Made by a program: the position numbers and the translations under genes
The notes under the pieces: model-generated
Told to the model about the DNA's origin: nothing
Seen by the model: only the letters and a program-made list of their open reading frames with translations
The model's database searches: none
Shown: in pieces, positions 8,797 to 31,447 of the stretch
How the letters are laid out: every line of letters starts with the position of its first letter
Numbering within the stretch: position 1 is the first letter of the stretch
DNA from: Candidatus Dojkabacteria bacterium
Lineage (GTDB): Bacteria; Patescibacteriota; Dojkabacteria; J137
Direction: 5' to 3'
Length of the DNA: 64,000 nt
Assembly (NCBI GenBank): GCA_041750555.1
Contig: JBGSZB010000029.1
Coordinates: 672-64,671 of the forward strand

Positions 8797-9570
8797 TTAA
8801 GCTTCTATATATTTATCTCTTTTTGGTCTTTTACCCTGTTTTGTTAAAAGTGCAAATCCTATTACTACAAAAAACAAGCCGAGAGATAATGGGATTATTG
8901 GTTCTAACCCCGTTATAGCTGTATCTGGAAGAGAGGGCGTTACAGGTGTAGTAGGTGTTGTTGGGGTTGTAGGCGTTGTTGGATTAGTTGGCTCTTCAGG
9001 ATCAGGCTCTTCTGTTACAGCTTGTATCTGAACTGTTAGCTCATTAGGGCTATAATCCAACCCTGCTCCATTAGATCTAACTAACTGAGTACCCACTGAC
9101 CCCTGTACAACTTTAACATTTGCACTACCCACCACTTGGGATTGAAATTCTATCTCAGCAACCGCTCTATTTACTGAAAAACTACTTCCACTTGGGGTTG
9201 TTGCTAAAAGCGTAATTCTTCCAGTCTGTGTTGCAGTATTATCACTAACTGGATTATTTACTACAAAAACTGTATCTATAAATTTAATTTGTGTTCCAGT
9301 AGAGTTACTATCTTGATCAACTACACTTAATTTTGTTGAATCATACTCTATTACAAGTTTAAATTCATTTATTTGTTGTTCTCCTGTATTTATACTAACT
9401 GTTACTTTAAATTTACTTCCAACAGTTGATGAAGTACTACTGGAACTTAATAGTACAGTTGCAGCTTGTCCATTAGAAGTTCCTATATCAATACTCCCAA
9501 ATGTAGGTTGCGATAGAGCATCAAAATCTTGAGCTTTAACTACAGGAATTAAATTTAATAAGTTAGCCAT
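8797..9570 (-). CDS. Predicted cell-surface protein with a Pro/Thr-rich stalk and a C-terminal sortase-type sorting signal (LPDTA, then a hydrophobic segment, then a basic tail)
   Basis: C-terminus ...EEPDPEEPTNPTTPTTPTTPTTPVTPSLPDTAITGLEPIIPLSLGLFFVVIGFALLTKQGKRPKRDKYIEA*. The upstream half has Ig/cohesin-like alternating beta-strand composition. The LPDTA motif is encoded at 8917..8931. Confidence 0.6.
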   Translation of the reverse strand: MANLLNLIPVVKAQDFDALSQPTFGSIDIGTSNGQAATVLLSSSSTSSTVGSKFKVTVSINTGEQQINEFKLVIEYDSTKLSVVDQDSNSTGTQIKFIDTVFVVNNPVSDNTATQTGRITLLATTPSGSSFSVNRAVAEIEFQSQVVGSANVKVVQGSVGTQLVRSNGAGLDYSPNELTVQIQAVTEEPDPEEPTNPTTPTTPTTPTTPVTPSLPDTAITGLEPIIPLSLGLFFVVIGFALLTKQGKRPKRDKYIEA

Positions 9571-9676
9571 ATGTATATAATATTATGAATCACTAATCTT
9601 TGGAATAGTTTAAGAATTATTTGATATTTTAACAATCTCTTGTATATTAAATATATATTTTCTAAAAATTAATTAA

Positions 9677-10483
9677 ATGAAAGATAATCAACCTATAATT
9701 TCTATTATAATTGTTACCTGGAATAACTCTCAGGATATTAAAAGTTGTTTAGAGAGTGTTTTTAACCAAACTTACAAAAATTTTAATGTTGTATTGGTTG
9801 ATAATGCTTCAACTGATAATACTGTAGAAATTGTTAGAAGTAATTTTCAATCAGTAATAATTTTACAGAATAAAGCAAATCAATATTTAACAAGGGGAAA
9901 TAATAAAGGTATTAAGTTTTCAATTGATACATTTGACCCTAAATATATTATGGTTTTAAATCCAGATACCCTTCTTAGTAAAAATTTGCTATCTGAATTG
10001 GTTAATGTTTTAGAAAAAAATCCAGAAGTTGGAGCTAGTGGTCCAAAAGTAATATTTGAGAACGATAGAGATAAGGGTTTAATTAATTCTGCAGGATTAA
10101 TTTTTGATGGATTTATGCAAGCATATGATAGAGGTTTCTTAGAGAAAGATAAGGGGCAATACGATAAACAAGAATATGTTTTTGGGGTTACTGGGGCATG
10201 CATTCTTTATAGAGCTGATATGCTTAAAGATATAGGGCTTTATTGGGAACAAGTAAGACTTCATTTAGATGAGGTTGAGTTATTTATTAGAGCTAAGAAA
10301 CGTAATTGGAAAGTTATATACAATCCTAAAGCGATTCTTCAACATAAATATATGCAATCTACAGATCAGAATAAAGCATACAAGATTAATAACGCAAAAA
10401 AGAATGTGTGGTTAAAAATTGCTCTAAAGCATTATTCATTAAAAAGTAAATTAGCAATGATTAAAAAGTATTTGTTTAGTTAA
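9677..10483 (+). CDS. Glycosyltransferase family 2
   Basis: ISIIIVTWNNSQDIKSCLESVFNQTYKNFNVVLVDNASTDNT is a GT-A N-terminal signature with a DNA(S) motif. A later DxD-like element is also present. Confidence 0.85.
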   Translation: MKDNQPIISIIIVTWNNSQDIKSCLESVFNQTYKNFNVVLVDNASTDNTVEIVRSNFQSVIILQNKANQYLTRGNNKGIKFSIDTFDPKYIMVLNPDTLLSKNLLSELVNVLEKNPEVGASGPKVIFENDRDKGLINSAGLIFDGFMQAYDRGFLEKDKGQYDKQEYVFGVTGACILYRADMLKDIGLYWEQVRLHLDEVELFIRAKKRNWKVIYNPKAILQHKYMQSTDQNKAYKINNAKKNVWLKIALKHYSLKSKLAMIKKYLFS

Positions 10484-10967: not shown

Positions 10968-11468
10968 TTAAATAACAATATTACCAATTAAAAGAACCCC
11001 TAAAGAGATTAATAGACCTAGAAGAAACCCCACAATTACATCACTTAAATAATGATAGCCTAGTACTACTCTACTAAACCCTAGAATTATTGAATAAATT
11101 AATATTAAAAATACTATTAAAGGATTAGTAATATAAAATAAACTTAATATAAAAAAATAACCAACACTAGTAGCGTGAGTTGATGGAAATGAATGCGAAG
11201 TTAACTTTGAATAGTATGGTCTCTTTCTTTTAATAAACTTTTTAATACCATTCTCAATAATTAAAAACATTAAAACTATACCTACAATACTTAAGATAAA
11301 TAGTTCTAATCTTTTTTCAGTAAATAACAATTCAATTAATATTAAAGGAATAACTCCATATCCTACAGTTAATAAATCTAATAGTTTATGAGTTGACTTA
11401 TTAAGCCTAAAGACATTAAATACCTTTTCTGATAAACTCCTATCTAGTAGTACTAATTGTTTATACAT
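10968..11468 (-). CDS. PAP2-family (type 2 phosphatidic acid phosphatase) polyprenyl-pyrophosphate/phospho-sugar phosphatase
   Basis: All three PAP2 motifs are present in order: KRKRPYY (KX6RP), FPSTHA (PSGH-like) and SRVVLGYHYLSDV (SRX5HX3D). The protein is polytopic. Confidence 0.8.
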   Translation of the reverse strand: MYKQLVLLDRSLSEKVFNVFRLNKSTHKLLDLLTVGYGVIPLILIELLFTEKRLELFILSIVGIVLMFLIIENGIKKFIKRKRPYYSKLTSHSFPSTHATSVGYFFILSLFYITNPLIVFLILIYSIILGFSRVVLGYHYLSDVIVGFLLGLLISLGVLLIGNIVI

Positions 11469-12346
11469 TGAATAAATTTAAAGATTACTTAACATTAATA
11501 AGAATACATCAGATTCCTAAAAATTTCTTTATATTTCTACCATTAATATTTACTTCTAAATTTTTAATATTAGATGATTTAGTTAAATCTATACTCTACT
11601 TTCTACTTTTTACAATTATTACCTGGAGTGTATATATTATTAATGATATTAAAGATATAGAGGAAGATAAACTTCATCCAATTAAAAAGTATAGACCTTT
11701 AGCTTCTAATAAAATATCAAAAAATGAATTATTAATTATAAGATCATTCTTATCATTTTTATTCTTACTAATATCCTTTATTTGGTTTATTTTTATTGGA
11801 ATTGATTTAAACTTTATACTTGCACTTATTGTTCTATCAACTTACTTCTTAATTAATATTTTATATTCATATTTCTTTAAAAGAATACCTTATATTGAAT
11901 TAACTATAGTTCCAATAGGTTTTATATTAAGAAGTTTAGGTGGAGCCTATATTATTAATGAATATTTATCTATAGATCTATTTTTATTAATACTATTTTT
12001 AACCTCTTTTATTATTTTATCTAAAAGATTTAGAGAAAAATTTGTTACTAAATCTAGTAGAAGTGTTTTAAAAGTTTATACTAATAATTTTCTAAATTAT
12101 GGATTAAAAATTACTTTAAGCTTATTTTTAATTACCTATACCCTATTTACTTTATTCAACACAAGACATAGTAGTTTAATAATAATTACTAATCCATTTG
12201 TTTACTTAATTTCCATACGATACTTAAATTTAATTACTAATTCAAATGATAAGCAAGATGATCCTTTTAAAATATTTATTAAAGATAAATTTAATTTATT
12301 CTTAATAATACTCTGGGGAATAATTGTTGTTATTGAAACCATCTAA
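11468..12346 (+). CDS. UbiA-family polyprenyl-phosphate prenyltransferase, resembling decaprenyl-phosphate phosphoribosyltransferase
   Basis: The exact NDxxDxxxD motif is present (YIINDIKDIEEDKLHP, about 11641..11667), followed by KKYRPLASNKIS (compare the RPLASG of the UbiA family). The protein has about 8 TM helices. It contains no internal Met at all, so it must start at a non-ATG codon. The TTG at 11468 shares a base with the divergent PAP2 start codon. Confidence 0.7.
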   Translation: MNKFKDYLTLIRIHQIPKNFFIFLPLIFTSKFLILDDLVKSILYFLLFTIITWSVYIINDIKDIEEDKLHPIKKYRPLASNKISKNELLIIRSFLSFLFLLISFIWFIFIGIDLNFILALIVLSTYFLINILYSYFFKRIPYIELTIVPIGFILRSLGGAYIINEYLSIDLFLLILFLTSFIILSKRFREKFVTKSSRSVLKVYTNNFLNYGLKITLSLFLITYTLFTLFNTRHSSLIIITNPFVYLISIRYLNLITNSNDKQDDPFKIFIKDKFNLFLIILWGIIVVIETI

Positions 12347-13866
12347 TGCAGTATCTAAAGGAGAAAATAAAATTAAATAAAGCTTTATATCTAGTTTTAC
12401 TTGTTGTGATTTCTCTCTCTTTAATCACTATTCTATTAAATAATCCAAAAAGTTTTGGTGATGGGAGCGAATACACTTTATTGCTTGAAAGCTTATACAA
12501 TCACCAAAGCCCTGAATTGAGATTAGAAGATATTAATAGCACATACACAAATGCACTTAAATACAATTATGACGTTAATCTTTTTACACAAGAGAATGCA
12601 TATAGTGGGTACTTTACATCTGGTGATGGTTTAAACTACTCCTATCATTTCTGGGGATATTCCTTAGTATCCTTGCCAGTTAGGGGCTTTTTAGAAGTTT
12701 TTAATTTAAATATATTTAATACTTTTGCAATAACAAACTTATTACTCTTTAGTATTACTTCGTTTTTAATTCCTTTACTCATAAAGAGAAATAAAATAAT
12801 ATCTTTTTTAATACTTACTCTTAATACATCAATTCTTTACATTAACCTTAATCATCCTGAGTTCTTTACCTATTCATTAGTATTACTCTCTTCTCTTCTT
12901 TTTTTAAGAAATAAATACTTTTTAGCAATATTATTAAGTTCTCTAGCATCTCTTCAAAACACACCTGTAATATTTTTAACGTTATTAATATTAATTTATT
13001 CAACATATATTTATTTTAAAGAAACAGGGTTTAGATTAGTTTTAATAAAAAGACTATTACCCATATTTTTAATTTCCCTAATATCAGTCATTCCCTTTAT
13101 TTTTTACTATATAAACTTTCAAACTTTTAATTTAATACAAAAGGTTGGAGGGTCCGATTTAAATTTAATTTCTTTAAAAAGAGTAATTGAACTGTTTTTT
13201 GACCCTAACTTAGGATTATTTTTTTATGTTCCACTATCTGTAATTGGTATAGTTACTTCAATTTATTATTTCATTAAAAAAAGATCTTTAAAGATACTAA
13301 TCTTAATCTTAAGTGTTGTATTAATGAGTATTCTTTCTACTTCAACAACTAACTGGAATCATGGAATGATAACCTCTTCTAGATACGCTATATGGGCAAT
13401 ACTACCAATAGGTAACTTGCTTCTTATTGAGATAGTAAATCGGGAAAACATAATAATAAATTTGAAAGATTTTATTAAATTAGAGGGGTTGAAAACTCTA
13501 TTTAAGTTTAAATACTTAATAACTATTGCAATCTATTTATTACTAATCTATCAATTATTAATAGTAGTAATAGCAGGAGGTTTAATTTCAAACGGAAGAT
13601 TGGGGGGAAGCGGATTAACTCCTTTCTCTCAAGTAATATTAAATTACTTTCCATCTCTCTACTCTCCTACACAGCAAATATTTGAAGGTAGAGTTTTATG
13701 TAATGAAAAATTGTGTGATTATCCAATAATATATAAATACAATAATGATTGTAAGAAGATATTATTAAAGAATACTAGTGATAATGTTTCTAAAGTTATT
13801 AATGAATGTGGAGAAAATTTTAATATAGATCACTGTGATTCTACTTTTTGTTATTATAGTTATTAA
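12346..13866 (+). CDS. Polytopic membrane protein, putative GT-C-fold glycosyltransferase, with a Cys-rich extracytoplasmic C-terminus
   Basis: 506 aa and at least 10 TM helices. An acidic first loop is present (FGDGSEYTLLLESL...ELRLEDINS). The C-terminal 60 aa contain 7 Cys (CNEKLCDYP...DCKK...ECGENFNIDHCDSTFC). Its start overlaps the UbiA stop (taATG). Confidence 0.4.
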   Translation: MQYLKEKIKLNKALYLVLLVVISLSLITILLNNPKSFGDGSEYTLLLESLYNHQSPELRLEDINSTYTNALKYNYDVNLFTQENAYSGYFTSGDGLNYSYHFWGYSLVSLPVRGFLEVFNLNIFNTFAITNLLLFSITSFLIPLLIKRNKIISFLILTLNTSILYINLNHPEFFTYSLVLLSSLLFLRNKYFLAILLSSLASLQNTPVIFLTLLILIYSTYIYFKETGFRLVLIKRLLPIFLISLISVIPFIFYYINFQTFNLIQKVGGSDLNLISLKRVIELFFDPNLGLFFYVPLSVIGIVTSIYYFIKKRSLKILILILSVVLMSILSTSTTNWNHGMITSSRYAIWAILPIGNLLLIEIVNRENIIINLKDFIKLEGLKTLFKFKYLITIAIYLLLIYQLLIVVIAGGLISNGRLGGSGLTPFSQVILNYFPSLYSPTQQIFEGRVLCNEKLCDYPIIYKYNNDCKKILLKNTSDNVSKVINECGENFNIDHCDSTFCYYSY

Positions 13867-16060: not shown

Positions 16061-16516
16061 TTGATAAAAGTGAGAAATAAATATATGGTCAGAAAAACAT
16101 TAAATACACAGGTTTTTAGATTTTTAGTTGTAGGATTTAGTGCTTTTTTAATAGATTATGGAACTCTTTTTATTTTAATTGAAGTTTTTAAATTTAATTT
16201 AGAACTATTTAACTTTATATTAGTTGCTAATATCATCTCTACTGTTATAGCTGTACTATTTGGTTTCTATTTTCAAAAGAAATGGACATTTAAAACTATT
16301 AACTCTGAAAAGGCTAAGATGGAGTTTGTGTTGTTTATTGCCCTACAAGTATTTAACATCTTATTTTACAATGCTTTATTATTTAATATTTTTAGATACA
16401 ACTTATCTCTTGATGCATTAATTGCTAAACCTTTAGTTGTTGTATTTCAAACCATAACAAGTTATATGGCTATGAAGTTTATTATCTTTAAAACAGATAC
16501 AAAAGTAAGTAATTAA
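16061..16516 (+). CDS. GtrA-family small membrane protein, a putative polyprenyl-phosphate-sugar flippase component
   Basis: 151 aa with four TM helices. FRFLVVGFSAFLIDYGTLFILIEVF is typical of the GtrA family. Confidence 0.75.
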   Translation: MIKVRNKYMVRKTLNTQVFRFLVVGFSAFLIDYGTLFILIEVFKFNLELFNFILVANIISTVIAVLFGFYFQKKWTFKTINSEKAKMEFVLFIALQVFNILFYNALLFNIFRYNLSLDALIAKPLVVVFQTITSYMAMKFIIFKTDTKVSN

Positions 16517-18945: not shown

Positions 18946-19815
18946 ATGGACAAAAAAACTATAGTTAAACTCACAAAGATTGTAGTTTATAATTTGTTTT
19001 TTGTTGGTACTTTATACTTTGCATTAAAGTCAATTGATATATCTTCTGTAGAGATACGTTTACCTGATAGTGTAACTTATTTAATACTTTCAGTTTTTTT
19101 CTTTTTTCTCTTTTATCTTTTACTTTCACTTGCTTGGAGTCTTATACTTGATACTTATTCTGAAAAAAGAAGTGGTTACACTTCAGTTTTAAGTTTTTTA
19201 GCAGGTCAGGTATATAAATATCTTCCATCAAGTTTATTTGGTATCTCTTTTAGAATACTTTATTCAAAGAAACTAGGTTTCTCTGTAGGTGATTCTATAA
19301 GAGCATCATTATTTGAAAATCTTCTTTTAATTTATACATCTTTTTGGATTTTCCTTTCCTTTTATTACTCATATATCCTTTTTCTTGCAGGGTTAATAAT
19401 ATACCTAATTGGTCTTTTAATCTTAAAAAAAGGTAAAAAAATATTTAGCAATTTACCAATTATTAAAAAGATTATAGTTTTTCAGAAGTTTTCATATTCT
19501 AAGCTTATCTCTGCTTATTTTTTGCAATCTTTAGGTTGGTTAGTAGCAGGCTTAGCTCTTTTTGTATATCAATTAGGGTTTCAAAATAATAATGCTGATA
19601 TAGTTTCTACAATTTCAGCTCAATCTGTATCATATACTGTTAGCATTTTAGCTGTATTTGCTCCAGGTGGATTAGGTATAAAAGAATATTTTTTAAACAA
19701 TGCAGGAATTACTGCATTAATAGTAATTAATTGGAGGTTATTAACGGTTGCAATGGATATAATAATAAGTAGTATTTCTATTATATTTATATACAAGAAA
19801 TCAAATGAGAATTAA
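18946..19815 (+). CDS. Hypothetical polytopic membrane protein, possibly flippase-like of the UPF0104/LPG-synthase-TM type
   Basis: 289 aa with about 8 TM helices. The assignment is tentative and rests only on composition and topology. Confidence 0.4.
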   Translation: MDKKTIVKLTKIVVYNLFFVGTLYFALKSIDISSVEIRLPDSVTYLILSVFFFFLFYLLLSLAWSLILDTYSEKRSGYTSVLSFLAGQVYKYLPSSLFGISFRILYSKKLGFSVGDSIRASLFENLLLIYTSFWIFLSFYYSYILFLAGLIIYLIGLLILKKGKKIFSNLPIIKKIIVFQKFSYSKLISAYFLQSLGWLVAGLALFVYQLGFQNNNADIVSTISAQSVSYTVSILAVFAPGGLGIKEYFLNNAGITALIVINWRLLTVAMDIIISSISIIFIYKKSNEN

Positions 19816-21403
19816 TATAAAAAATCTTAAAACACTAACTGGCAAATACTTGATCGATATATCTCTATTTTTAGCAAACAATATACTTTTAGCTGGGATT
19901 TTCTCATTTTTAGTTAGAAATATTGTAAGTTTAGATAGATATGAAACATTAAAATTCCTAATTATCTATTTTATATTCTTTTCTTTGCTTACTCTTACCT
20001 ACTACTACATAGAGTCTAAAATACTGATGCTTGGATTAAATAGAAAAACTTTCAGAACCTTTAACCTTTTTTTAATTTTTGTATCTATTGTACTTTTTTT
20101 TCATTACTTTGTAGGAGAAAGAAGACCTTTGCTTCTTTCAGGGATCTTAATCATTTTAATTAGATTAATAATATTAAAGTTGTCTCTAAGGGCAAGCTTC
20201 TTCCAACATTTAAAAAACTTAATTCAAAAAAAATACTTACCCTTTATAATAGTTTTAGCTATTTATTCAATAATGGTTTTATTCCTATATATTTTCCATA
20301 AACAGCCTGGGTTAAATCAATTGGTCTGGGAGAATTCTGATTCTGTAGCATATAAAAACTTAAGTAATACTCTCGTTTTACTCTCTCCAGCTAAAAGCGT
20401 TTTCTCACTAGGATTACCACTTATTATGGCTCCCCTTAATCTAGTAATGCAAACTTTTCAGTATATGAATAATATATATTATGACAACATTTTAAACCTT
20501 CCCTTGTTGATTTTTGTAGGATTTATAATCACACCTTTAGCAATAACCTTAGCTATTAAGAGTGCATTAATAAAATCTAAGGAGTTTATAACTAACAAAA
20601 TATATCTAATTATTACAAGTATAGTAATTTTAACTTTATTACTTTACTTTACTATCCTACCATCTCATTATGAGTTTCTGACAATTGATGATACTCAACG
20701 AATGTGGCTAAGAGTTACAGGTTTTGTAGCAGCTGTAGAGCCCTTAATTAACCTAGGTTCAGCAATATTTTTACTTTGCTTAGCATACCTTCCTAAAAAA
20801 AGATTTAGCCCACTATTAATTGGATTAATTGGAGGGTTATATCTTCTTGTAAAAGAACCTAACTTTGTAATCTGGGGGTTATTTTTAATATTTATGCTCT
20901 TAAAGAGTAAATCAATATGGTGGAGTTTTAAAGCTGGGCTAGTTTCCCTTGCAGTTTATAGCTTACAATTGTTATATAATTTCTTTCTTTATGGAGATCC
21001 GATTAGTGCAGGAAGAGCTGCTCAAGATGAAAAAGTTGGGCTTAAATTTATTGAACATGTTAAAAACACATATGGTATAGAGTTTGAAAGTGCCCCTAGA
21101 ATTAGTCTTGAGTATCTTGGACATAATCTTGAGATGATTTTGCAAACATACTTAATCCCCATAATCTTACTTGTAGTTATTATATTTTTTCTATTAAGAA
21201 GTAAATTCGTAGATAAATTTGTACTAGCATTTTCTATAGTAAACATAGGGTTTTTCTTTATCTTTTATTCGATGTATATAAGATTAGGTGCTACAACAAG
21301 ATACTTTAGTGTACTCTTACCTTTTATTATCTATATAGTAGTAAGCGCTTCCCTGTTAATTATTAATCTAATAAGAAAAAGAAGAGGTTTAAAAGTTAAT
21401 TAG
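19805..21403 (+). CDS. Large polytopic membrane protein, putative GT-C-fold glycosyltransferase
   Basis: 532 aa and at least 12 TM helices. No soluble domain is recognisable. Its context is polyprenyl-phosphate sugar synthases. Confidence 0.4.
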   Translation: MRINIKNLKTLTGKYLIDISLFLANNILLAGIFSFLVRNIVSLDRYETLKFLIIYFIFFSLLTLTYYYIESKILMLGLNRKTFRTFNLFLIFVSIVLFFHYFVGERRPLLLSGILIILIRLIILKLSLRASFFQHLKNLIQKKYLPFIIVLAIYSIMVLFLYIFHKQPGLNQLVWENSDSVAYKNLSNTLVLLSPAKSVFSLGLPLIMAPLNLVMQTFQYMNNIYYDNILNLPLLIFVGFIITPLAITLAIKSALIKSKEFITNKIYLIITSIVILTLLLYFTILPSHYEFLTIDDTQRMWLRVTGFVAAVEPLINLGSAIFLLCLAYLPKKRFSPLLIGLIGGLYLLVKEPNFVIWGLFLIFMLLKSKSIWWSFKAGLVSLAVYSLQLLYNFFLYGDPISAGRAAQDEKVGLKFIEHVKNTYGIEFESAPRISLEYLGHNLEMILQTYLIPIILLVVIIFFLLRSKFVDKFVLAFSIVNIGFFFIFYSMYIRLGATTRYFSVLLPFIIYIVVSASLLIINLIRKRRGLKVN

Positions 21404-22850
21404 TACAATTATACTTTACTGAGTCTAAGTCGCTATTAAAGCTAATTAAAAGTACTGAATTTATAATGTAAACACGGTTAACTTCATCACTCATGTTAAT
21501 GCAGTTTAAATCATTATTATAGTTTTCCTCTACGTATTTACTTGTTTGATTATAATGACCAAACTTAACATTTCTATAATACTCACTATTTTTAATAGAA
21601 TCATACATTACTGGAGATATATTCATTAAAGGACTTTCATACCCATCTCTTCTAGATATATTAAAATTTGAATTGGCTATATCAGACTTTGTAATATAGT
21701 AATTATGAAAAATCATTAAATCTTGTCCATTTAAGAAACCACCTAAAGGAAGGGAGTTAAAGTAGATTATCAAAACTAATACAGTGAAAAAGATTATGTT
21801 TCTAATTCTACTAATATATTTATTAACTAAGTATCCTAATATTAAATATATCCATGGTGTTAGATAAACTAAGAACCTTCTATCCTGCCAATCGTATAGA
21901 TGAACCCAAAAGACCCAAGTTATCAAAAATCCTGAAACTAAAAATATAAACTGTCTATTTTTTAAAATTTCTCTATGTTTAAAAAAGCTTAATAGGAGTA
22001 AACCAAGCAAAATAATCATTACAAATCCAAAAAAAGTATGTGTATTAAAAATATAGAATATTGTATTGGCAATATTTGGTTTTATTAATTCAAACTGAGT
22101 AACTTTTGTATAGAAAAAGCTATTAAATTCTAAAAACTTATACAAATGCCAAGGTAGAATTACTAAAAGAGCTAGAATAGATGGTAGAAAGATAATAAAA
22201 AGCTTATATAGATTATTTCTTAAATCTTTCACACTCTTAATAATTTGATTACGAAATAAATAAATATAGTAAAGAATCCAAAGAATAAAAAGATAATATC
22301 CAAAATTTTGAAATAGCATTGATACCGTAAGGCTTAAGAATGATAGATACCATTTATTCCTTATCAAGAAACAAATCGAGGTAGCTATAAATGCAACAGC
22401 ATAAAAGTCAGCTAATATATAATTACTTCCTAGATTCAGGGAATAGTTAAAAAATACTAGAAGTGCAATAGCAAGTGAGATTCTTAAATTTTTAGTCATA
22501 CTCTTAACAGAGTAATAAATTGAAGATATCATTAAGAAAAAGATACCCTGGTTAATTAGTGGCAGAAGATATATAGCTCCTAACCTATTTAGTATTGATA
22601 TTATTAAAGGAAGTCCGAGATTTCTAAAAGTAATCGAATCATTCTCCAAGAATCTAACTCCATTAGCAATCCAATCAAAACTATCACTATATGTGAACTT
22701 ATAGATATCTAAAAACCCATCAATATCCCCCACCATTGGGGTTATTAGTAAATATTTTATAAAAAGGGTAACTCCAATAGCTGTTAGGATTGATACTTCA
22801 ATCTTATTTCTTTTTATATACTTAACTATTCTTTGGAACATATTATGCAT
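21396..22850 (-). CDS. Large polytopic membrane protein, putative GT-C-fold glycosyltransferase
   Basis: 484 aa and at least 11 TM helices. An acidic motif lies in the first extracytoplasmic loop (MVGDIDGFLDIYKFTYSDSFDW), reminiscent of the D-D/E loop motif of ArnT/PMT/Emb-type GT-C enzymes. Confidence 0.4.
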   Translation of the reverse strand: MHNMFQRIVKYIKRNKIEVSILTAIGVTLFIKYLLITPMVGDIDGFLDIYKFTYSDSFDWIANGVRFLENDSITFRNLGLPLIISILNRLGAIYLLPLINQGIFFLMISSIYYSVKSMTKNLRISLAIALLVFFNYSLNLGSNYILADFYAVAFIATSICFLIRNKWYLSFLSLTVSMLFQNFGYYLFILWILYYIYLFRNQIIKSVKDLRNNLYKLFIIFLPSILALLVILPWHLYKFLEFNSFFYTKVTQFELIKPNIANTIFYIFNTHTFFGFVMIILLGLLLLSFFKHREILKNRQFIFLVSGFLITWVFWVHLYDWQDRRFLVYLTPWIYLILGYLVNKYISRIRNIIFFTVLVLIIYFNSLPLGGFLNGQDLMIFHNYYITKSDIANSNFNISRRDGYESPLMNISPVMYDSIKNSEYYRNVKFGHYNQTSKYVEENYNNDLNCINMSDEVNRVYIINSVLLISFNSDLDSVKYNCTN

Positions 22851-22936: not shown

Positions 22937-24214
22937 ATGAAAGTTTCAGTAATAGGATTAGGCTATGTCGGTTTACCACTACTTATAGCAATGAGTAATA
23001 AAACAAAACATAAAGTTGTGGGGTTTGATATTTCTCAAAAAACAATTGATAAAATAAATAATAATATATGTCCAGTAATTGATGAACAAACAGAGGAAGA
23101 ATTTAAAAAATCACAGAAGCTTAATGTTTCTAATGACATTAAAAGTATAAAAGACTCAGATGTATATATAATATGTGTTCCAACTCCAATTAATAGTGAT
23201 TTTGATCCTGATTATGGTCCTGTAATTGGTGCTACAAAAACAGTTTGTACATATTTAAAAAAAGGAAACATTGTTATTCTAGAATCAACAGTTAATCCTG
23301 GAACTTGTGAAGAAGTAATGGCTCCTGTTATCGAAGAAGTAACAAAATTAAAAATGGGTAAGGACTATGATATTGTACATGCACCTGAAAGAATTAATCC
23401 AGGGGATAAGACTTGGAATGTAACTAATTTATCAAGAAATATTGGAGGTTCTAGAATTGAAGCTAGTGAAAAAATTAAAAGGCTCTACTCTGAGTTTATT
23501 ACTGCTAATTTAAATGTAGTATCTAATTTAAAAGTAGCAGAAGCTTCTAAAATAGTTGAAAACTCATTTAGAGATTTAAACATTGCATTTGTAAATGAAT
23601 TAGCAAAATCATTTGATGCAATGGGAGTAGATTTAATAGAAACAATACAAGCTGCATCATCTAAATTTAGTTTTATGCCTCATTGGCCAGGTCCTGGAGT
23701 TGGAGGACATTGTATAGCAGTTGACCCATACTACTTAATTAAAAGAGCAGCTAAGTCTGGGTTTGACCATAGATTAATGAAAGAAGCTAGAAATATTAAT
23801 AATAGTATGCCAGATTACACAATTAGTAAATTATCTCTTTTATTAAATAGCTTAGAGCTTTCAATTAAGGGTACTAAAATTGCTCTTTTAGGTTTAAGCT
23901 ATAAACCTGAAGTTGGAGATTTAAGAGAAAGTCCATCACTTGTTTTAAAAAATAAACTTGAGAAGTTAGGTGCAGATTTAAATGTTTATGAACCATTTGT
24001 ACTATCACTATCTAATGTTAAAACGTTAGAAGAGGCTGTTAAGGGTTGTGATGTAGTTCTACTTACAACAGCTCATAACGAATTTAAGGATAAACTTACA
24101 GGTAGTTTCTTAAAGAAAATGAAAGTTAGGGCAGTTTTAGATACAAGAAACTGTTTAGACTTTAAAGATATTAGGAAAAATAAGGTATTATATACAGGAA
24201 TAGGTAGAAGTTAA
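22937..24214 (+). CDS. Nucleotide-sugar 6-dehydrogenase (UDP-N-acetylhexosamine dehydrogenase, WbpA/WecC/TviB-like)
   Basis: MKVSVIGLGYVGLPLLIAM...VVGFDISQKTIDKIN is the N-terminal NAD-binding motif. It includes the GFDI(N) signature of the UDP-GlcNAc/ManNAc dehydrogenase branch. The catalytic Cys region GGHCIAVDPYYL is also present. Confidence 0.85.
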   Translation: MKVSVIGLGYVGLPLLIAMSNKTKHKVVGFDISQKTIDKINNNICPVIDEQTEEEFKKSQKLNVSNDIKSIKDSDVYIICVPTPINSDFDPDYGPVIGATKTVCTYLKKGNIVILESTVNPGTCEEVMAPVIEEVTKLKMGKDYDIVHAPERINPGDKTWNVTNLSRNIGGSRIEASEKIKRLYSEFITANLNVVSNLKVAEASKIVENSFRDLNIAFVNELAKSFDAMGVDLIETIQAASSKFSFMPHWPGPGVGGHCIAVDPYYLIKRAAKSGFDHRLMKEARNINNSMPDYTISKLSLLLNSLELSIKGTKIALLGLSYKPEVGDLRESPSLVLKNKLEKLGADLNVYEPFVLSLSNVKTLEEAVKGCDVVLLTTAHNEFKDKLTGSFLKKMKVRAVLDTRNCLDFKDIRKNKVLYTGIGRS

Positions 24215-25674
24215 TGAAATTAATACAAGATAGATTAGCAGTTTATACAGCAATATATGGGGGTACCGATATATTAATCGATCCCCCTATAATTCCAGCT
24301 AATTGTGATTTCTTTTGTTTTACAGATAGAGATGATGTAGATTCTAGTATTTTTAAAGTAATTAAAACTCCTAGACTATTTCCTAATGATACTAATAGAT
24401 CTGCTAAATTCTTTAAAGTATTTCCACATAAAGTATTACCCGACTATGAATACTCTTTTTGGATAGATGCTAGAACATATATTAAAGATGAAAATATATT
24501 TAAAAAAACTGTTAACTTACTTAAGGATAATAACTTAGCAATATTTAAACACCCTGAACGAACTTCAATTTATGATGAGGCTAAAACTTGTATAGATTGG
24601 GGTAAAGATAAGGCTGAAATTATTAATCCTCAAATAGAAAAATACAAAAAGGATGGTTACTTAGATCAAGTAAGATTAATTGCAGGTACTTTCATATTTA
24701 GAAGACATCATTCTCGCGATGTAATTAAATTTGAAGAAGGTTGGTGGAAAGAAATACTAAAACACAGTAAAAGAGATCAGATTAGTTTCCCATATATTGC
24801 ATGGAAAACTAAGTTAAAGTTTAACGTAATTGAGAAAGACACTAACAACAACAACTTAGTTGGGGTATTAAGGTATAGAGAAAGAGATACACTTAAAACA
24901 ATAAAGATTTCAAATAAAAAGAACGGGAACAATATTGTTATTTACTCTGCTCTATTTGGAGACATAGACAACTATATTGAACATAATAAAATACCGGGGT
25001 GTGATATTGTACTTTTTACTGATAATAAAGAGTTAAAGCTTAAAAATACTAAAAAGATATTAATTGATCCTAATGGTTTTGATTCTAGAAAACTAGCTAG
25101 AATGTTTAAAACATTACCACATAAGTTTTTCCCAAACTATGAATACTCAATATGGATTGATGCTAGTATAGAAATAACTAATGATGCACTTGTAGATTTA
25201 ACATATAACTCTATTCAAACAAAAGATCTGGCGTGTTTCAAACATATGCATAGAGACACTCTTTATGATGAAGTTAATTCATGTTTAGAAAGAAAAAAAG
25301 ATAATCCATTTATTCTTACAACACAATACAGAGACTATAAAGCGGATAAATTTATTGATAATGGAACATTAATAGAATCAGGTGTATTAATAAGAAAACA
25401 CATGAATCCAGCATTAATTACCTTTTCTGAGAATTGGTGGAAAGAGATAAAAAAGTATTCAATAAGAGATCAGATTAGTTTTCCTTATGTACTATTTAAA
25501 AACCCAATAAAAATTAAACAATTAAGAGGCTTTATCTGGGAGAATCCATACTTTAGAGTAAGAGAACATAATGAAACTAGTTCTAAGTATGCTTCAATAA
25601 AGGTTAAACAAAATATTCTTAAAAACTTTAAGGAATACTTTAAATGGTATAAACTTTACCGGTCATTACATTAA
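24214..25674 (+). CDS. Tandem-duplicated DUF616-like putative glycosyltransferase
   Basis: Two internal copies of about 235 aa share the same motifs in the same order. YTAIYGGTD/YSALFGDID, FKHPERTSIYDE/FKHMHRDTLYDE and RDQISFPYIAWK/RDQISFPYVLFK are present in both. W(I)DA and WW(K)EI are common to both as well. The start overlaps the dehydrogenase stop. Confidence 0.55.
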   Translation: MKLIQDRLAVYTAIYGGTDILIDPPIIPANCDFFCFTDRDDVDSSIFKVIKTPRLFPNDTNRSAKFFKVFPHKVLPDYEYSFWIDARTYIKDENIFKKTVNLLKDNNLAIFKHPERTSIYDEAKTCIDWGKDKAEIINPQIEKYKKDGYLDQVRLIAGTFIFRRHHSRDVIKFEEGWWKEILKHSKRDQISFPYIAWKTKLKFNVIEKDTNNNNLVGVLRYRERDTLKTIKISNKKNGNNIVIYSALFGDIDNYIEHNKIPGCDIVLFTDNKELKLKNTKKILIDPNGFDSRKLARMFKTLPHKFFPNYEYSIWIDASIEITNDALVDLTYNSIQTKDLACFKHMHRDTLYDEVNSCLERKKDNPFILTTQYRDYKADKFIDNGTLIESGVLIRKHMNPALITFSENWWKEIKKYSIRDQISFPYVLFKNPIKIKQLRGFIWENPYFRVREHNETSSKYASIKVKQNILKNFKEYFKWYKLYRSLH

Positions 25675-26395: not shown

Positions 26396-28522
26396 TTACC
26401 TTTTAACTAGTTTTACAGCTTTATACAGTACTGGATATTGCATTAACTTGGCCTTTAGTTTAGCCTTTAAGAAGTTTTTAGAGTAAGGATTAAATAGATC
26501 ATTTAAAAATCTTTTAGTAAAAAACAACCCTATACCCTTCATTGAATTACCTTTATTTCCTAATTCAAGTAAATATTTTTCAATATCTTCCCCATAATTA
26601 CTACTCAATTGTAAATTACTTGAAAATTTAAAAGCTTTATCTACTCTTTTTTTATCATTATCATTTAAAAGCTCATCAAAAGCCTTCTTTAATGAATTTA
26701 AATCTGAAGCATTAAATGTATATGCGGTTGTTTCATCTACAAAATCACTTAATCCACCTACCGTTGTTGAAATTAATGGTACCTTTAATAGCATTGCTTC
26801 AAATGCTGATCTACCAAAACCTTCTGATCTAGATGCATTTATCATGGCTTTACTTGATTTAATAATTTCAAATGGATTATCAATAAATCCTAAGAAATGT
26901 ATATATTCTTCTAACTTATATTTTTTAATTAATTCAAGAATTTTAGTATAGTAATCACTATTAACATCATATTCTCCAATTAAGAGTAAATGATATTTAT
27001 CACTATCTTTTGTTTTATTTAATGTATTAATTAATTCTATAGCATCAATTTGACCTTTATTCTCTTCAATTGAACCAAGGACTACTAATCTATTACTATT
27101 AAACACTTCATCATCTTTTGTTTTAAAGTAATTAACTATCTTTTTAATATCAACTAATTGATTTCTTTCATGAAATTGTTTTTCTAATACGTGTAAGTTT
27201 GGATATCTTTGTATTAAGACTTTTGTTCTCTCCTTAATAATTTTTTTCTTTTCTTCACCTATTACATCAAAAGATCTTCCTTCCCAATGATGTATATACA
27301 TATTTGTAGATACAATTATTCTATAGCCCTTATTCAATGCTCTCATTGATAAATCAACTTCTTCTCCATAACCTTTTCCAAAGTTATCTTCATCAAAGTA
27401 ACCTATATCATTCAAAAGAGATCTTTTAATATATGTACAATATCCATGAGTTGCATGAGTCTCTATATATTTGTAAGGGGAGAATAATTCTAGTGCTTTA
27501 TTAACAATTTCAGGGTTATTTTCAAACTCTTTATTAAATTGATCTGGAACAGAGTAATAACTTGCACTATTAGATAAACTTGTAGACATACAAATATTAT
27601 CATCTTGATAAACATTAGTTCTTAATTTATCTATCCAGTTAGAAGTAACAACTGTATCTGAGTTTAATAGTATTACATCATTAGCACTTGATAACTTCAT
27701 TCCTCTATTACAATTTTTAACAAATCCTAAGTTTTCTTCGTTTTCTAAATATACAAACAAATCATTATGCTTTTTTATCCAAGTTTCTACTCTCTCTCTT
27801 AATTCTAAATCTGGTCCTTTATCAAATATTACATATACTTTATCTAAGTGAGGTGATTTATGCTTTAAAACGCTCTCTAAGCACTCTAGAATACTATCAT
27901 CTTTGTAAAAGGGTATAACTACATCAACCTTTCTTTTCTCTTTAATAGGCTTTAAATTTTGATTTTCTACAACAATCCTATTTGTAATAACTGTGGAATT
28001 TTCATTAACTATCTCTTTGGTATAAATATCTTTAAGATAATTTGAAATATATATTACTCTTGAACTACTACTGTTAATGTAATTAGCAATATCATTTTGT
28101 GGAACTATTGGTGTATAAGTTGGGTTATCAATTATTGATTCTCTAATATGCCATATATGTGGCACATTTAAGAAAGTTGAAACCATTGCTCCTACATTTG
28201 TAACTGCAGTATTTGTATATATTAAATCTACCTTTTCACCCTTTAAAAAATTATATATGTTAATAGCTTGAGTTAATATATTCTGAAACTTTATATTGTT
28301 GTTAACATTCTTTTCCCATGATAAGTTTACCCAAAGATCAAAATAGAAATGAAAACATTTAACTCCAAGTTTTGTTGATTCTTCTAAAAGGGATCCACTA
28401 TCTTCTCTACTAATTAAAAGAATTTCGTGGTTTTTTGATTTTAAATATTTAATTAATTCAAATAGTGACTCTTCAGCTCCACCTGTTTTTCTTGCTCTTG
28501 GAGTTATTATTGCTATTTTCAT
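26396..28522 (-). CDS. Three-module glycosyltransferase (GT4 N-lobe, GT2, GT4)
   Basis: 708 aa. The N-terminus MKIAIITPRARKTGGAEESLFELIKYLKSKNHEILLIS is a GT-B N-lobe. The middle VDVVIPFYKDDSILECLESVLKH...DVILLNSD is a GT2/GT-A module. The C-terminus RSEGFGRSAFEAMLLKVPLISTTVGGLSDFV is the GT4 EX7E motif. Confidence 0.8.
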   Translation of the reverse strand: MKIAIITPRARKTGGAEESLFELIKYLKSKNHEILLISREDSGSLLEESTKLGVKCFHFYFDLWVNLSWEKNVNNNIKFQNILTQAINIYNFLKGEKVDLIYTNTAVTNVGAMVSTFLNVPHIWHIRESIIDNPTYTPIVPQNDIANYINSSSSRVIYISNYLKDIYTKEIVNENSTVITNRIVVENQNLKPIKEKRKVDVVIPFYKDDSILECLESVLKHKSPHLDKVYVIFDKGPDLELRERVETWIKKHNDLFVYLENEENLGFVKNCNRGMKLSSANDVILLNSDTVVTSNWIDKLRTNVYQDDNICMSTSLSNSASYYSVPDQFNKEFENNPEIVNKALELFSPYKYIETHATHGYCTYIKRSLLNDIGYFDEDNFGKGYGEEVDLSMRALNKGYRIIVSTNMYIHHWEGRSFDVIGEEKKKIIKERTKVLIQRYPNLHVLEKQFHERNQLVDIKKIVNYFKTKDDEVFNSNRLVVLGSIEENKGQIDAIELINTLNKTKDSDKYHLLLIGEYDVNSDYYTKILELIKKYKLEEYIHFLGFIDNPFEIIKSSKAMINASRSEGFGRSAFEAMLLKVPLISTTVGGLSDFVDETTAYTFNASDLNSLKKAFDELLNDNDKKRVDKAFKFSSNLQLSSNYGEDIEKYLLELGNKGNSMKGIGLFFTKRFLNDLFNPYSKNFLKAKLKAKLMQYPVLYKAVKLVKR

Positions 28523-28523
28523 T

Positions 28524-29714
28524 TTAATTTTTTGAAATATATTTTTGAATATCCCATGATTTATCTAGGGTTAATAACCCTCTGTCTTTGTTATCAACTT
28601 CACTCCTTTCTATATGAAACACTGTAGATCTTTTATCCATAAAAAGAACTTTATCATTATTTTCATCAAGAACTGCAACATCTACATAATAGTCACCTTC
28701 ACTTAGGTTTAAGTTTTTTAAAGTTAGATAAACTGAATCACATTCTACTAAGTTTGAAATGTTTGAAAAATTTGAAGTAGTTTCATAAATTAATAAATCA
28801 TCGTCTCTAGTTAAACTAAATTTTAAATTATAATTTTGTACTAATTTCTTATTCTGAATAGCTGCTCTTATGCTTAAATCATAATCCTTAATAATCTCTG
28901 CTCTTACTTTTGAAACTACAATATCATTGTCCACCCTGTCATATTTTTCTTCTTCTGCTTTTTGTAGCTTTTCAATTTCAAGTAAGGATTGACGATACTG
29001 ATCAATACCTGTTCTTGTATCTCCATCAAATATGACTTCTCCTTGGTTTAACCATACAACCCTATTACAGTATTTTTGAACTGAACCTAAACTGTGACTA
29101 ACATAAATAACTGTTTTACCCTGTTCAATTAGTTTATTTATAACTCCAATAGATTTAGATCTAAATGCACCATCACCTACTCCAAGTATTTCATCTAAAA
29201 TATATATATCAGCATCAGTTTGAATAGCTATTGAGAAAGCTAATCTAACCTTCATTCCACTTGAATAGTTTTTAACAGGTGTATGTATAAAGTCTCCTAA
29301 TTCTGAAAACTCTACAATATCGTTATATCTTTTTTTAATCTCCTTAGTTGTTAAACCTAAAATTGCTCCATTAAGAAATATATTTTCTCTACCAGATAGT
29401 TCTGGGTTGAATCCAACTCCTAATTCTAGAAAAGGAACCATTCTTCCATTAACCGTAACCTCTCCTCCTTTATCTGGACTATATATCCCTGCAATTACTT
29501 TTAAAAGTGTTGATTTACCACTACCATTTCTACCTATTATTCCAATAAACTCACCTTTTTTAATATCTAAATGAATATTTTTTAATGCATGAAAAGGTTT
29601 AGATTTACCTTGATTAAAAAGTGAAACAACTAGAGATCTTAATGTATCCTTTTTATTATCTGCTATAAAAAAGGATTTATTTAAATTTTTTATACTTACT
29701 GCTATATCATTCAT
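28524..29714 (-). CDS. ABC transporter ATP-binding protein, Wzt/TagH-like polysaccharide exporter with a C-terminal extension
   Basis: Walker A GRNGSGKSTLLKVIAG, the signature YSSGMKVRLAF and Walker B IYILDE. A C-terminal region of about 150 aa follows the NBD, as in Wzt glycan-binding domains. Confidence 0.85.
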   Translation of the reverse strand: MNDIAVSIKNLNKSFFIADNKKDTLRSLVVSLFNQGKSKPFHALKNIHLDIKKGEFIGIIGRNGSGKSTLLKVIAGIYSPDKGGEVTVNGRMVPFLELGVGFNPELSGRENIFLNGAILGLTTKEIKKRYNDIVEFSELGDFIHTPVKNYSSGMKVRLAFSIAIQTDADIYILDEILGVGDGAFRSKSIGVINKLIEQGKTVIYVSHSLGSVQKYCNRVVWLNQGEVIFDGDTRTGIDQYRQSLLEIEKLQKAEEEKYDRVDNDIVVSKVRAEIIKDYDLSIRAAIQNKKLVQNYNLKFSLTRDDDLLIYETTSNFSNISNLVECDSVYLTLKNLNLSEGDYYVDVAVLDENNDKVLFMDKRSTVFHIERSEVDNKDRGLLTLDKSWDIQKYISKN

Positions 29715-29717
29715 AGT

Positions 29718-30500
29718 TTAAAAATACTCAGCTACTCTTTTTATTCTTTTGTTAAAGAATGACCAACCTAAAATAAAGATAATTAATGATCCTAAAAAGA
29801 ATATTATTCCCTTTTCTACATCAATTGTTCCATATACTCCTAACGCTGCTCTTACCTGATTAATTAATATTCCTACAGGGTTATATTTTAATATATATGA
29901 CATAACGCCTCCACTCCCTAAAGGGAAACTTGAAAGTGTAAAAAATATTGGTGTTAACCAATAAAGTAAAAAGAAACCTAGATCTACAATGTTTTTTAAA
30001 TCTCTAAATCTAATTGAAACTATACTAAAAAAGAAAGATATTCCAAGACATGCAATAAATGCACTTATTGTTAAGAAGATAAAGTACGCAAGACCTCCTA
30101 ATGTAACTTGAATATTATTAGCTAATATAAAGATTACTATTAACAACATATTTATTACTAAATTGATAAGTGCATTAAATTGAGATGCAATAACAGCTAT
30201 TTGTCTTGGGAAATTAACTTTAAGAATAATTCCTGCCTTATCTAGTAAAGACATCATACCCAGGGTTACCATTTCAGTTATATATGTATAAAAGATTATT
30301 CCAGTTAGTAAATAAAGTGAGAAAAATTCAACATCGTCATTTTGTCTAATCCTACTCCATATTAGAAAAAGAACTATAAAAGTTGCATATGGCTTTATTA
30401 ATACCCATAAAACTCCTAGTACGGAGTTTTGATATCTCATCTTAAAGCTTGTTTTTATTAGTTCTTTTAAAAGTGTAAAAGAGTTACGTGTTTTAATCAT
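29718..30500 (-). CDS. ABC-2 type polysaccharide export permease (Wzm/TagG-like)
   Basis: 260 aa and 6 TM helices. It lies immediately upstream of the Wzt-like ATPase, with a 3-nt gap. Confidence 0.8.
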   Translation of the reverse strand: MIKTRNSFTLLKELIKTSFKMRYQNSVLGVLWVLIKPYATFIVLFLIWSRIRQNDDVEFFSLYLLTGIIFYTYITEMVTLGMMSLLDKAGIILKVNFPRQIAVIASQFNALINLVINMLLIVIFILANNIQVTLGGLAYFIFLTISAFIACLGISFFFSIVSIRFRDLKNIVDLGFFLLYWLTPIFFTLSSFPLGSGGVMSYILKYNPVGILINQVRAALGVYGTIDVEKGIIFFLGSLIIFILGWSFFNKRIKRVAEYF

Positions 30501-30547
30501 ATTACTTATCTTACAGGTTATTATACAATAGTAGATTTAATTAACAA

Positions 30548-31447
30548 CTATACCCTGAAAATTTTTAATCTCGAAATTATTGAATTTGAACGTATTAATT
30601 CTTTAGGTAAAGACATCCTTCCTTTTGAATTAAGAATCTTTATAGCTTCATAGTATTCTTTTGGTGATTTAAAATTTTTAATAAACCTTGATATTTCTTT
30701 GGTATTCTTAAAAGAATCAATTTCGCTTTTTTTCTCTGATATTTTGTTTTTTTTCATAAAATTTTCGAATTCATCTTTTACCTCATCTTTATCCAGCATT
30801 AATTTACCCTTAAAATCTCTCCCTATATTCAAACCAGCAAGCAGAATTTTAAAATCACTGTCGTTTTCTGATTCTCTTGACCAATAGCTTTCAAGTATAG
30901 AATTTACATCATCATGTTTTACACCATAGGTAAAGCCCTTTCGAAAGATATCTTCAAAATACTGTTCAAAATCATGAATTCCACAAACTACATCAGTAAT
31001 ATAATTATAATAACCATTCTTGTGCATTGATTTAATCATATGAGTTTCTGGTCTATTCTCATCAACTGATATATATTTCAGAGCTTCCGGTATGAAGCTT
31101 GTTCTATAAAATTTAATACCCCCAACCCTAACTCCACCAAAATACTTATCCAACATTGATGACTGTATTGTAAAAACTTTTTCGTTCTGTGTATTAGCAA
31201 TTTTTAAAAATTTAGTTAATACACCTTTAGCAATTAAAACATCTGCATCTATAACCATTGTCCATTTCTTATTAGCTTTTATACCTGCCTCCATTGAAGA
31301 ATATAGTGCCTTACTAAAAGGAAATTCGTTAATGACAAATATATTATTTTCATTACGCTCCTCTTCTAAAAGGGATATGCATAAATCTAATGTTCTCTCT
31401 TTTACCGATCTGATAACTATTAATACTTCCCTATCAAGATTCTTCAT
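30548..31447 (-). CDS. Hypothetical protein, possibly a GT-A-fold nucleotide-sugar transferase
   Basis: N-terminal VLIVIRSVKERTLDLC and a DxD-like WTMVIDADVLI. The assignment is weak. Confidence 0.3.
   Translation of the reverse strand: MKNLDREVLIVIRSVKERTLDLCISLLEEERNENNIFVINEFPFSKALYSSMEAGIKANKKWTMVIDADVLIAKGVLTKFLKIANTQNEKVFTIQSSMLDKYFGGVRVGGIKFYRTSFIPEALKYISVDENRPETHMIKSMHKNGYYNYITDVVCGIHDFEQYFEDIFRKGFTYGVKHDDVNSILESYWSRESENDSDFKILLAGLNIGRDFKGKLMLDKDEVKDEFENFMKKNKISEKKSEIDSFKNTKEISRFIKNFKSPKEYYEAIKILNSKGRMSLPKELIRSNSIISRLKIFRV

Follow-up and report, generated by a model that had tools for sequence, protein, structure and literature searches.

A putative three-gene module for making a lipid-linked pentose, probably ribofuranose, and using it outside the membrane in a low-GC bacterium

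The 64,000-nucleotide stretch of contig JBGSZB010000029.1 analysed here (the window, with a GC content of 24-34%) contains three adjacent genes, which encode a PAP2-family membrane phosphatase (10968..11468, minus strand), a UbiA-fold protein (11468..12346, plus strand) and a GT-C glycosyltransferase (12346..13866, plus strand). We think it likely that the three genes serve to make a lipid-carried pentose, probably ribofuranose, and to transfer it, outside the membrane, to a surface polymer. In its core this is what the initial annotation, made from the sequence without database searches, had proposed: a module for a lipid-linked phospho-pentose donor that is used on the outer side of the membrane, and not a quinone or heme pathway. 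Profile matches, predicted fold and conserved gene pairing support that proposal. In the pathway we envisage, the UbiA-fold enzyme would move 5-phosphoribose from 5-phosphoribosyl 1-pyrophosphate (PRPP) to polyprenyl phosphate on the cytoplasmic face, a chemistry suggested by its family, and the product would be polyprenyl-P-ribofuranose-5-phosphate. The PAP2 phosphatase would then strip the 5-phosphate, a role suggested by the conserved pairing of the two genes and by the displacement of other phosphatase families. The lipid-linked sugar would next be flipped across the membrane, and no protein of the window other than a GtrA-family member (16061-16516) is a candidate for this step. Finally the GT-C enzyme, which has the family, fold and catalytic residues of GT136, would put the pentofuranose, its presumed substrate, on a surface glycan.

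A pathway of this type was first described by Kelly et al. in 2024 for Citrobacter youngae O1/O2, where alpha-pentofuranose side chains are added outside the membrane (PMC11127046). There ORF15 is a polyprenyl phosphoribose synthase (PPPRS), a UbiA-like homolog of Rv3806c fused to a HAD phosphatase (PPPRS-PRP), ORF14 is a small transporter of the SMR/EamA type, termed MATE-family in the paper, and ORF12 is a GT-C enzyme, the founder of family GT136; an epimerase is optional, either the SDR protein ORF13, leading to xylofuranose, or DprE1/E2, leading to arabinofuranose (PMC11127046). The sequence and residue comparisons with ORF12 were made through the E. coli O99 protein WP_087602618.1, which stood in for it. 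The E. coli O99 counterparts (WP_077513725.1, WP_023566126.1 and WP_087602618.1) agree with the published residue numbers throughout, at eight of eight ORF12 and seven of seven ORF15 positions, and for this reason we treat them as putative orthologs of the characterised ORF12 and ORF15.

The UbiA-fold protein (292 amino acids, PF01040 E 1.5e-20) is a predicted polyprenyl-phosphate 5-phosphoribosyltransferase of the Rv3806c/ORF15 clade, and by the same prediction neither a quinone nor a heme enzyme. When it was compared with family profiles, as the initial annotation had recommended, models of decaprenyl-phosphate phosphoribosyltransferase (DPPRS) prevailed (E 1e-47 to 2e-21). The top NCBIfam model was NF008977 (162.8 bits, E 1.2e-47, equivalog cutoff 234); two further DPPRS models (110.2 bits, E 9.2e-32 and 77 bits, E 1.6e-21) and a HAD-UbiA fusion model (103 bits, E 1.5e-29) also matched. 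The next family, heme O synthase, reached 29 bits (E 6e-07), and MenA/UbiA and chlorophyll synthase models were absent from the NCBIfam matches. The only PDB sequence match was Rv3806c of M. tuberculosis (8j8j, E 4e-18), with no other UbiA-superfamily structure at E 0.01. The AlphaFold2 model (mean predicted local distance difference test score 93.6) shows the UbiA fold, with some nine membrane helices, and in Foldseek is closest to the same Rv3806c structure (template-modelling score, TM, 0.82, E 3e-9); other structures of the superfamily gave TM values of 0.57-0.69 (DGGGPS 0.68, AfUbiA 0.66, UBIAD1 0.57).

The catalytic signature of the clade is intact. The exact NDxxDxxxD motif followed by RPLAS, which had been recognised by eye, is NDIKDIEED at residues 59-67 followed by KKYRPLAS. 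N59, D60, D63 and D67, as well as K186 and R187, are invariant in 38 homologs. Through the E. coli O99 ortholog N59, D60, D63, D67, R187 and E190 (the last two forming KRxxE with K186) align with N247, D248, D251, D255, R366 and E369 of ORF15, residues that matter for function or are conserved in ORF15 and Rv3806c (PMC11127046).

The gene itself has an uncommon start. It is divergent from the PAP2 gene, and the two share a start-codon base, as noted initially: the PAP2 gene starts at an ATG read from the minus strand at 11466..11468, the UbiA TTG occupies 11468..11470, and base 11468 is common to both. The TTG at 11468 is the only canonical start, because the reading frame contains no ATG and no TTG or GTG other than codon 1, and an in-frame TAA lies upstream at 11417. 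The conserved N-terminal segment RIHQIPKNFFIF, which also aligns with other family members and in which R12 and K18 are invariant in the 38 homologs, falls downstream of this TTG. Orthologs in two other loci, L001 and L011 (loci compared with the window carry L numbers), share the TTG start, and those in L010 and L104 start with ATG. The earlier remark that the frame is free of methionine and has to start at a non-ATG codon is correct, and its being unusual holds in a mild sense: the methionine content of neighbouring proteins is 1.3%, thus about 3.8 would be expected in 291 residues, and the Poisson probability of finding none is about 0.02. In L001 an intact 293-residue ortholog with the same TTG start (9112-9993, plus strand) was overlooked by the gene caller of the sister contig, which instead placed a 43-residue open reading frame (ORF) on the opposite strand. 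ATG-free, TTG-initiated genes such as this one are likely under-annotated. At its other end the UbiA gene overlaps the GT-C gene in the sequence TAATG (12344-12348), the junction from which translational coupling had been suggested.

The GT-C protein (506 amino acids) had been described as having ten or more membrane helices and a Cys-rich domain; we find about 11-12 predicted helices, and at the C terminus a domain rich in beta structure that has six cysteines (residues 452-502). Its fold is of the GT-C type, in agreement with Foldseek, and an extracytoplasmic domain follows the first membrane helix. Searches of Pfam, NCBIfam and the PDB sequences with this protein gave no match, and a word-index search returned just 25 relatives. 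An exhaustive profile search collected 2,229 clusters (50% identity), with 1,265 reaching E<=1e-30; repeating the word-index search for homologs a third time, with the family profile, brought in nothing further, and tblastn of the protein against plasmids and phages gave no match. The family is large and unannotated.

Its identity is indicated by the enterobacterial counterpart. BLASTP aligned the 506-residue protein with the E. coli O99 GT-C at 2e-34 (28% identity over 436 residues), and the family profile scored the E. coli protein at E 2.7e-78. Residues D39, E42, Y43, H101, H170, E172, R346 and Y347 align one to one with D31, E34, Y35, H106, H174, E176, R349 and Y350 of ORF12, and each of the eight is 89-99% conserved in 171 representatives of the family. 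Mutants of ORF12 showed D31, E34, H106 and R349 to be essential, Y35 and Y350 important, and H174 and E176 dispensable (PMC11127046). The C-terminal carbohydrate-binding module of ORF12 (residues 503-652; DUF7024 in E. coli) is absent from the window protein, which instead ends in the Cys-rich beta domain of roughly 65 residues, for which there was no Pfam match. Since this module was reported to be dispensable for catalysis (PMC11127046), we do not treat it as family-defining. On the similarity in BLASTP and profile searches and the eight aligned, conserved residues, we conclude that the protein is a GT136 member, and we propose that it acts as a pentofuranosyl (ribofuranosyl) transferase outside the membrane.

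Members of this GT-C family are often found next to a synthase of the predicted type. In the eight loci first examined, a DPPRS-like UbiA gene adjoins the GT-C gene in five (the window, L001, L010, L013 and L016). A single-sequence contig scan with the GT-C gave seven loci, none of the window's lineage, and a profile-guided metagenome scan gave 80 further loci. A DPPRS-like UbiA gene lies at most 2.7 kb from the GT-C gene in 29 of these 80, and three more have a HAD gene at the contig end; L104 also has a UbiA gene within 2.7 kb of its GT136-family gene. There are at least five gene orders, e.g. a convergent GT-C gene facing HAD-UbiA, UbiA overlapping GT-C, HAD-UbiA downstream, and a fused HAD-UbiA, and these differences imply that the linkage has survived rearrangement. 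The complete PAP2-UbiA-GT-C trio recurs in L104 in another neighbourhood, with DnaK and a Na/Ca exchanger and not the ribosomal operon; the PAP2 gene is still divergent from the UbiA gene there, and the latter overlaps a 555-residue GT136-family gene (profile E 1.7e-109). A phage match (MT837543) was set aside: UbiA and HAD genes are present and there is no GT136 gene on the fragment. In L012 (6872-9490, Dysgonomonas) and L019 (8001-11535, Prevotella) the partner of UbiA-HAD is a DUF6080-family membrane protein and not a GT136 protein; DUF6080 may be another family of pentofuranosyltransferases.

The PAP2 protein (166 amino acids, PF01569 E 1.9e-16) has all three PAP2 motifs intact (KKFIKRKRP, PSTH and SRVVLGYHYLSD). 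We propose that it is the 5-phosphate phosphatase acting on polyprenyl-P-ribofuranose-5-P, a substrate suggested by its genetic context. If it were dedicated to the pathway, consistent co-occurrence with the UbiA gene would be expected, as the initial annotation pointed out, and the divergent pair is indeed kept in five loci (the window, L001, L010, L011 and L104), in L011 despite rearrangements. Elsewhere the place beside the synthase is taken by other phosphatases: in most lineages by a HAD protein, separate or fused (fused in E. coli), and in L023 by a PHP-family phosphoesterase. Homologs of locus-derived HAD or PHP phosphatase queries were not found in the window, where PAP2 occupies the slot. 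In M. tuberculosis a PAP2 protein, Rv3807c, adjoins Rv3806c, and it was cited by Kelly et al. as the DPPR phosphatase (PMC11127046). As to the variant module of L023 (7588-11063), the PHP phosphoesterase has 234 residues and is flanked by the UbiA synthase on one side and by an SMR-like protein with a GT136 GT-C on the other; a radical SAM/SPASM gene is upstream, and PHP is the third phosphatase family seen in this slot.

For the flipping step the window offers one candidate, a small GtrA-family membrane protein (151 amino acids, 16061..16516, plus strand, PF04138 E 3.8e-16), whose assignment as flippase is uncertain. The gene, already noted in the initial annotation, lies 2.2 kb downstream of the GT-C gene in the same-strand gene string as the UbiA and GT-C genes. 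It is plausible that GtrA is a flippase partner of the module, because GtrA genes adjoin UbiA or GT-C genes elsewhere: in L028 the order is UbiA, GT-C, GtrA with GtrA 25 nt away, in L019 UbiA, HAD, GtrA and the DUF6080-like protein, and in L102 UbiA, GtrA, DprE1, DprE2 and PMT_2. Rv3789 has been proposed as the GtrA-like counterpart in mycobacteria (PMC11127046). SMR/EamA-like genes stand beside GT136 genes in L023, L025, L029, L032/33 and L087, and SMR-like queries found no match in the window.

The sugar is most likely ribofuranose rather than arabinofuranose or xylofuranose, because no epimerase gene accompanies the module within the 64-kb window. Pfam scans of 59 window ORFs (every ORF of at least 126 residues plus the ribosomal-protein genes) revealed no FAD-type DprE1, SDR-type DprE2 or GalE-like epimerase, and phmmer searches with two query sequences each for DprE1 and DprE2 had no match in the window. 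Such enzymes were readily detected where present (L003, L006, L018, L102 and L087). DprE1 and DprE2 genes occur directly beside the UbiA gene in L003 (Desulfobacterales), L006 (Cyclobacteriaceae), L018 (a Chondrinema plasmid) and L102, where the partner GT-C is of the PMT_2/GT39-like and not of the GT136 type, and they are missing from the 80 metagenome loci of the GT-C family. Because the DprE1/DprE2 loci use another type of GT-C, ribofuranose would be the default for GT136 loci without epimerase, the window included. Instead of the "DPA-like" (decaprenyl-phospho-arabinose-like) label of the initial annotation, "polyprenyl-phospho-ribofuranose" describes the predicted donor better, unless epimerases are encoded elsewhere in the genome.

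Several points weigh against this interpretation. Donor, lipid and acceptor are all things that we infer. The UbiA protein scores below the curated cutoffs of all four best NCBIfam models (234, 207, 474 and 351), which makes it a divergent member of the family, and about 60% of the GT-C family loci have no UbiA gene nearby, many of them being on short contigs. In the window lineage GtrA always directly precedes the same GT2 gene, and in L011 this GtrA-GT2 pair is parted from the UbiA gene by genes on the other strand; GtrA may act mainly in a polyprenyl-phospho-hexose route, or in both. With profiles of the window-lineage proteins no GtrA and no PAP2 gene was detected beside GT-C in the 80 other loci, and Pfam then found one GtrA that had been missed, that of L028. 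At most, then, PAP2 and GtrA are choices particular to some lineages. The analysis covered 64 kb of the genome, and epimerases could lie elsewhere in it. Finally, the family matches of the PAP2 protein are weak and generic (SepP at E 6.5e-09, PRK11837, PgpB), far below the cutoffs (36 bits vs 250), and by sequence the PDB entries that match it best are those of B. subtilis PgpB and of LpxE. The active site of a PAP2 enzyme normally faces away from the cytoplasm; with such an outward site the lipid would have to be flipped before it is dephosphorylated, unless the topology is unusual.

These last points are also the case for seeing in the PAP2 protein a housekeeping phosphatase of undecaprenyl diphosphate or another lipid phosphate, which recycles the carrier lipid and stands beside the UbiA gene by ancestry or as a supplier of polyprenyl phosphate, the 5-phosphate being removed by another enzyme or kept. 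SepP, among the best family matches, is an undecaprenyl-diphosphatase, no PAP2 gene was detected beside UbiA/GT-C in the 80 other loci, and the phosphatase mutant D18A of ORF15 kept partial function (PMC11127046). Against a housekeeping role speak the same scores, far under the family cutoffs, the survival of the pair through the rearrangement of L011 and in the unrelated neighbourhood of L104, a window without a HAD or PHP homolog able to fill the slot, and the PAP2 protein adjoining the DPPRS of M. tuberculosis. We regard such a role as unlikely, though it has to be reckoned with. A crude positive-inside count of charge and hydropathy gives no more than a hint that the catalytic loops of the PAP2 protein could face the cytoplasm, which would fit the phosphatase role in the pathway.

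A true DPA-type pathway would employ the same three genes, with the donor epimerised to polyprenyl-P-arabinofuranose by DprE1/DprE2 encoded outside the 64 kb covered here. Until the epimerase acts, the two pathways follow the same logic, and GtrA and PAP2 are the mycobacterial choice of accessory parts. We consider it improbable, since DprE1/DprE2, wherever found, are directly beside UbiA and work with a PMT_2/GT39-like GT-C, and since none of the 80 loci of the present GT-C family, nor the window, contains them.

It is very unlikely that the GT-C enzyme uses a polyprenyl-P-hexose, e.g. polyprenyl-P-mannose provided by the downstream ManC-like gene, GT2 genes and GtrA, with the UbiA product serving some other acceptor enzyme: it belongs to the family of a characterised ribofuranosyltransferase with all functional residues kept, the UbiA stop and its own start codon overlap, and relatives in different phyla are linked to PPPRS genes. 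The reading of the UbiA protein as a prenyltransferase of aromatic compounds or lipids (for quinone, heme O or ether-lipid synthesis) has in its favour membership of the PF01040 superfamily, the weak heme O synthase match and the structural likeness to DGGGP synthase (TM 0.68), and is already close to refuted by DPPRS models that fit some 40 orders of magnitude better, by the lack of any other UbiA-superfamily sequence match in the PDB at E 0.01, by a window without quinone or heme genes and by genomic partners that are a GT-C enzyme and a phosphatase.

As stated in the initial annotation, there are no quinone genes nearby and glycosyltransferases surround the module: Pfam detected no quinone or heme pathway gene among the 59 ORFs and glycosyltransferases in plenty. 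A ribosomal-protein/rpoA operon (4.4-8.7 kb) is followed by about 25 kb of glycan genes, among them several GT2 and GT4 genes, the ManC-like nucleotidyltransferase, a UDP-glucose dehydrogenase and several methyltransferases. An ABC-transporter-dependent glycan cluster on the minus strand (26396-31447) encodes Wzm (29718-30500), Wzt with a C-terminal Wzt_C glycan-binding domain (28524-29714) and a 708-residue GT4-GT2 fusion, with methyltransferases close by. The polymer made by these genes (26.4-31.4 kb) is a plausible acceptor, because the Citrobacter/E. coli system modifies O antigens of the same assembly style.

A bolder version of the proposal is that the module ribofuranosylates a cell-surface protein, with the small PAP2 protein, its active site facing the cytoplasm, as a dedicated sugar-5-phosphate phosphatase; we give it a slim chance. 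The possible target is a 257-residue protein without a Pfam family (8797-9570, minus strand), which L001, L010 and L011 also have beside the glycan cluster. Its N-terminal part is rich in Ser and Thr, and it further contains a Thr/Pro-rich linker (PTTPTTPTTP), a sorting-like motif (LPDTA), a hydrophobic membrane anchor and a tail of basic residues. If true, a surface-protein target would be new for GT136 and a cytoplasm-facing site new for PAP2 enzymes.

Promoter-like sites between 10.4 and 18.4 kb were not in excess over shuffled expectation and no terminators were found there; the entire 64 kb contains no tRNA genes and no Rfam matches at the gathering threshold. Two large polytopic membrane proteins of the glycan region, of 532 (19805-21403, plus strand) and 484 residues (21396-22850, minus strand), have no Pfam match, even under relaxed settings. 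They were considered as paralogs of the 506-residue GT-C, to which hhalign found no relation; they may be further GT-C-like enzymes. Other genes of the window encode a 486-residue protein with a TOD1/MUCI70 glycosyltransferase-like domain (24214-25674, plus strand, E 2.9e-39), a family known chiefly from plants, and, on the minus strand, a 1,205-residue protein combining an N-acetylmuramoyl-L-alanine amidase domain, a subtilase domain and FG-GAP repeats (34064-37681), a LOG/SLOG-type domain fused to a methyltransferase (41638-42915, 425 residues) and a Sua5/YrdC-TsaE fusion (57844-58971, 375 residues).

These results would extend the PRPP-to-lipid-to-GT-C pentofuranose pathway, known from O antigens and mycobacterial arabinan, to a low-GC bacterium that is uncultured. 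They also point to its modularity: the synthase and GT136 form a constant core, the phosphatase is HAD, PHP or PAP2, and the flippase SMR-like or GtrA, which offers a practical rule for spotting such systems in genomes. Many genomes appear to carry a pentofuranosyltransferase that escapes annotation, as the GT-C family, with about 2,200 clusters at 50% identity, has neither a Pfam nor an NCBIfam model.

It is instructive to compare the module with known systems. Periplasmic glucosylation by GtrA/GtrB/GtrC likewise uses a lipid-linked monosaccharide, a small flippase and a polytopic transferase, and the window has GtrA followed by a GT2 gene; the donor synthase of the window, however, is a predicted PRPP-using UbiA-fold enzyme and not a nucleotide-sugar GT2. 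The mycobacterial DPA pathway has a stand-alone UbiA-type phosphoribosyltransferase adjoining a PAP2 phosphatase (Rv3806c/Rv3807c), the window has a GtrA-family protein in the gene neighbourhood as a possible counterpart of the GtrA-like Rv3789, and GT-C enzymes (Emb/Aft) use the donor outside the membrane. In contrast, the mycobacterial DprE1 (FAD oxidase)/DprE2 (SDR reductase) pair was not found in the window. The initial annotation had taken this pathway as the nearest relative. The donor-module reading is supported; the closest system is the GT136 system of C. youngae and E. coli O99, not the Emb/Aft arabinosyltransferases. The module is real and combines separately known parts, a mycobacterial-type PAP2 and GtrA and an enterobacterial-type GT136 with no epimerase; its newness is limited. 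It differs from the pathway described in 2024 by another phosphatase and probably another flippase.

In E. coli the GT136 system has the order 654-residue GT-C (WP_087602618.1), SDR epimerase, SMR transporter and 482-residue HAD-UbiA fusion (L087, a metagenome locus that proved to be from E. coli). The complete set is found in the O-antigen cluster of E. coli O99:H6 CU42ET-1 (L101, NZ_CP082773.1, 2980729-2985571), adjoining gnd, together with GT4 genes and a gmd/rmd-like pair, and in six of 5,426 complete E. coli genomes; the PGAP label of the O99 GT-C is merely "DUF7024 domain-containing protein". Compared with the C. youngae/E. coli system, the window has a separate PAP2 membrane protein instead of a fused HAD domain, GtrA as the sole flippase candidate instead of an SMR/EamA-type transporter, and a GT-C with a short Cys-rich end instead of the DUF7024 module. 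Its host appears to be a low-GC organism, with no LPS (lipopolysaccharide) genes in view, thus the acceptor cannot be O antigen. The GC content and the genes present suggest a CPR/Patescibacteria-like host. What the two have in common is the type of UbiA-fold synthase, with the NDxxDxxxD and KRxxE residues, the GT-C family, with the eight probed residues kept (BLASTP 2e-34), Wzm/Wzt-type glycan genes nearby and, as we would predict, the same donor route from PRPP, which in the epimerase-free form of the window would lead to ribofuranose.

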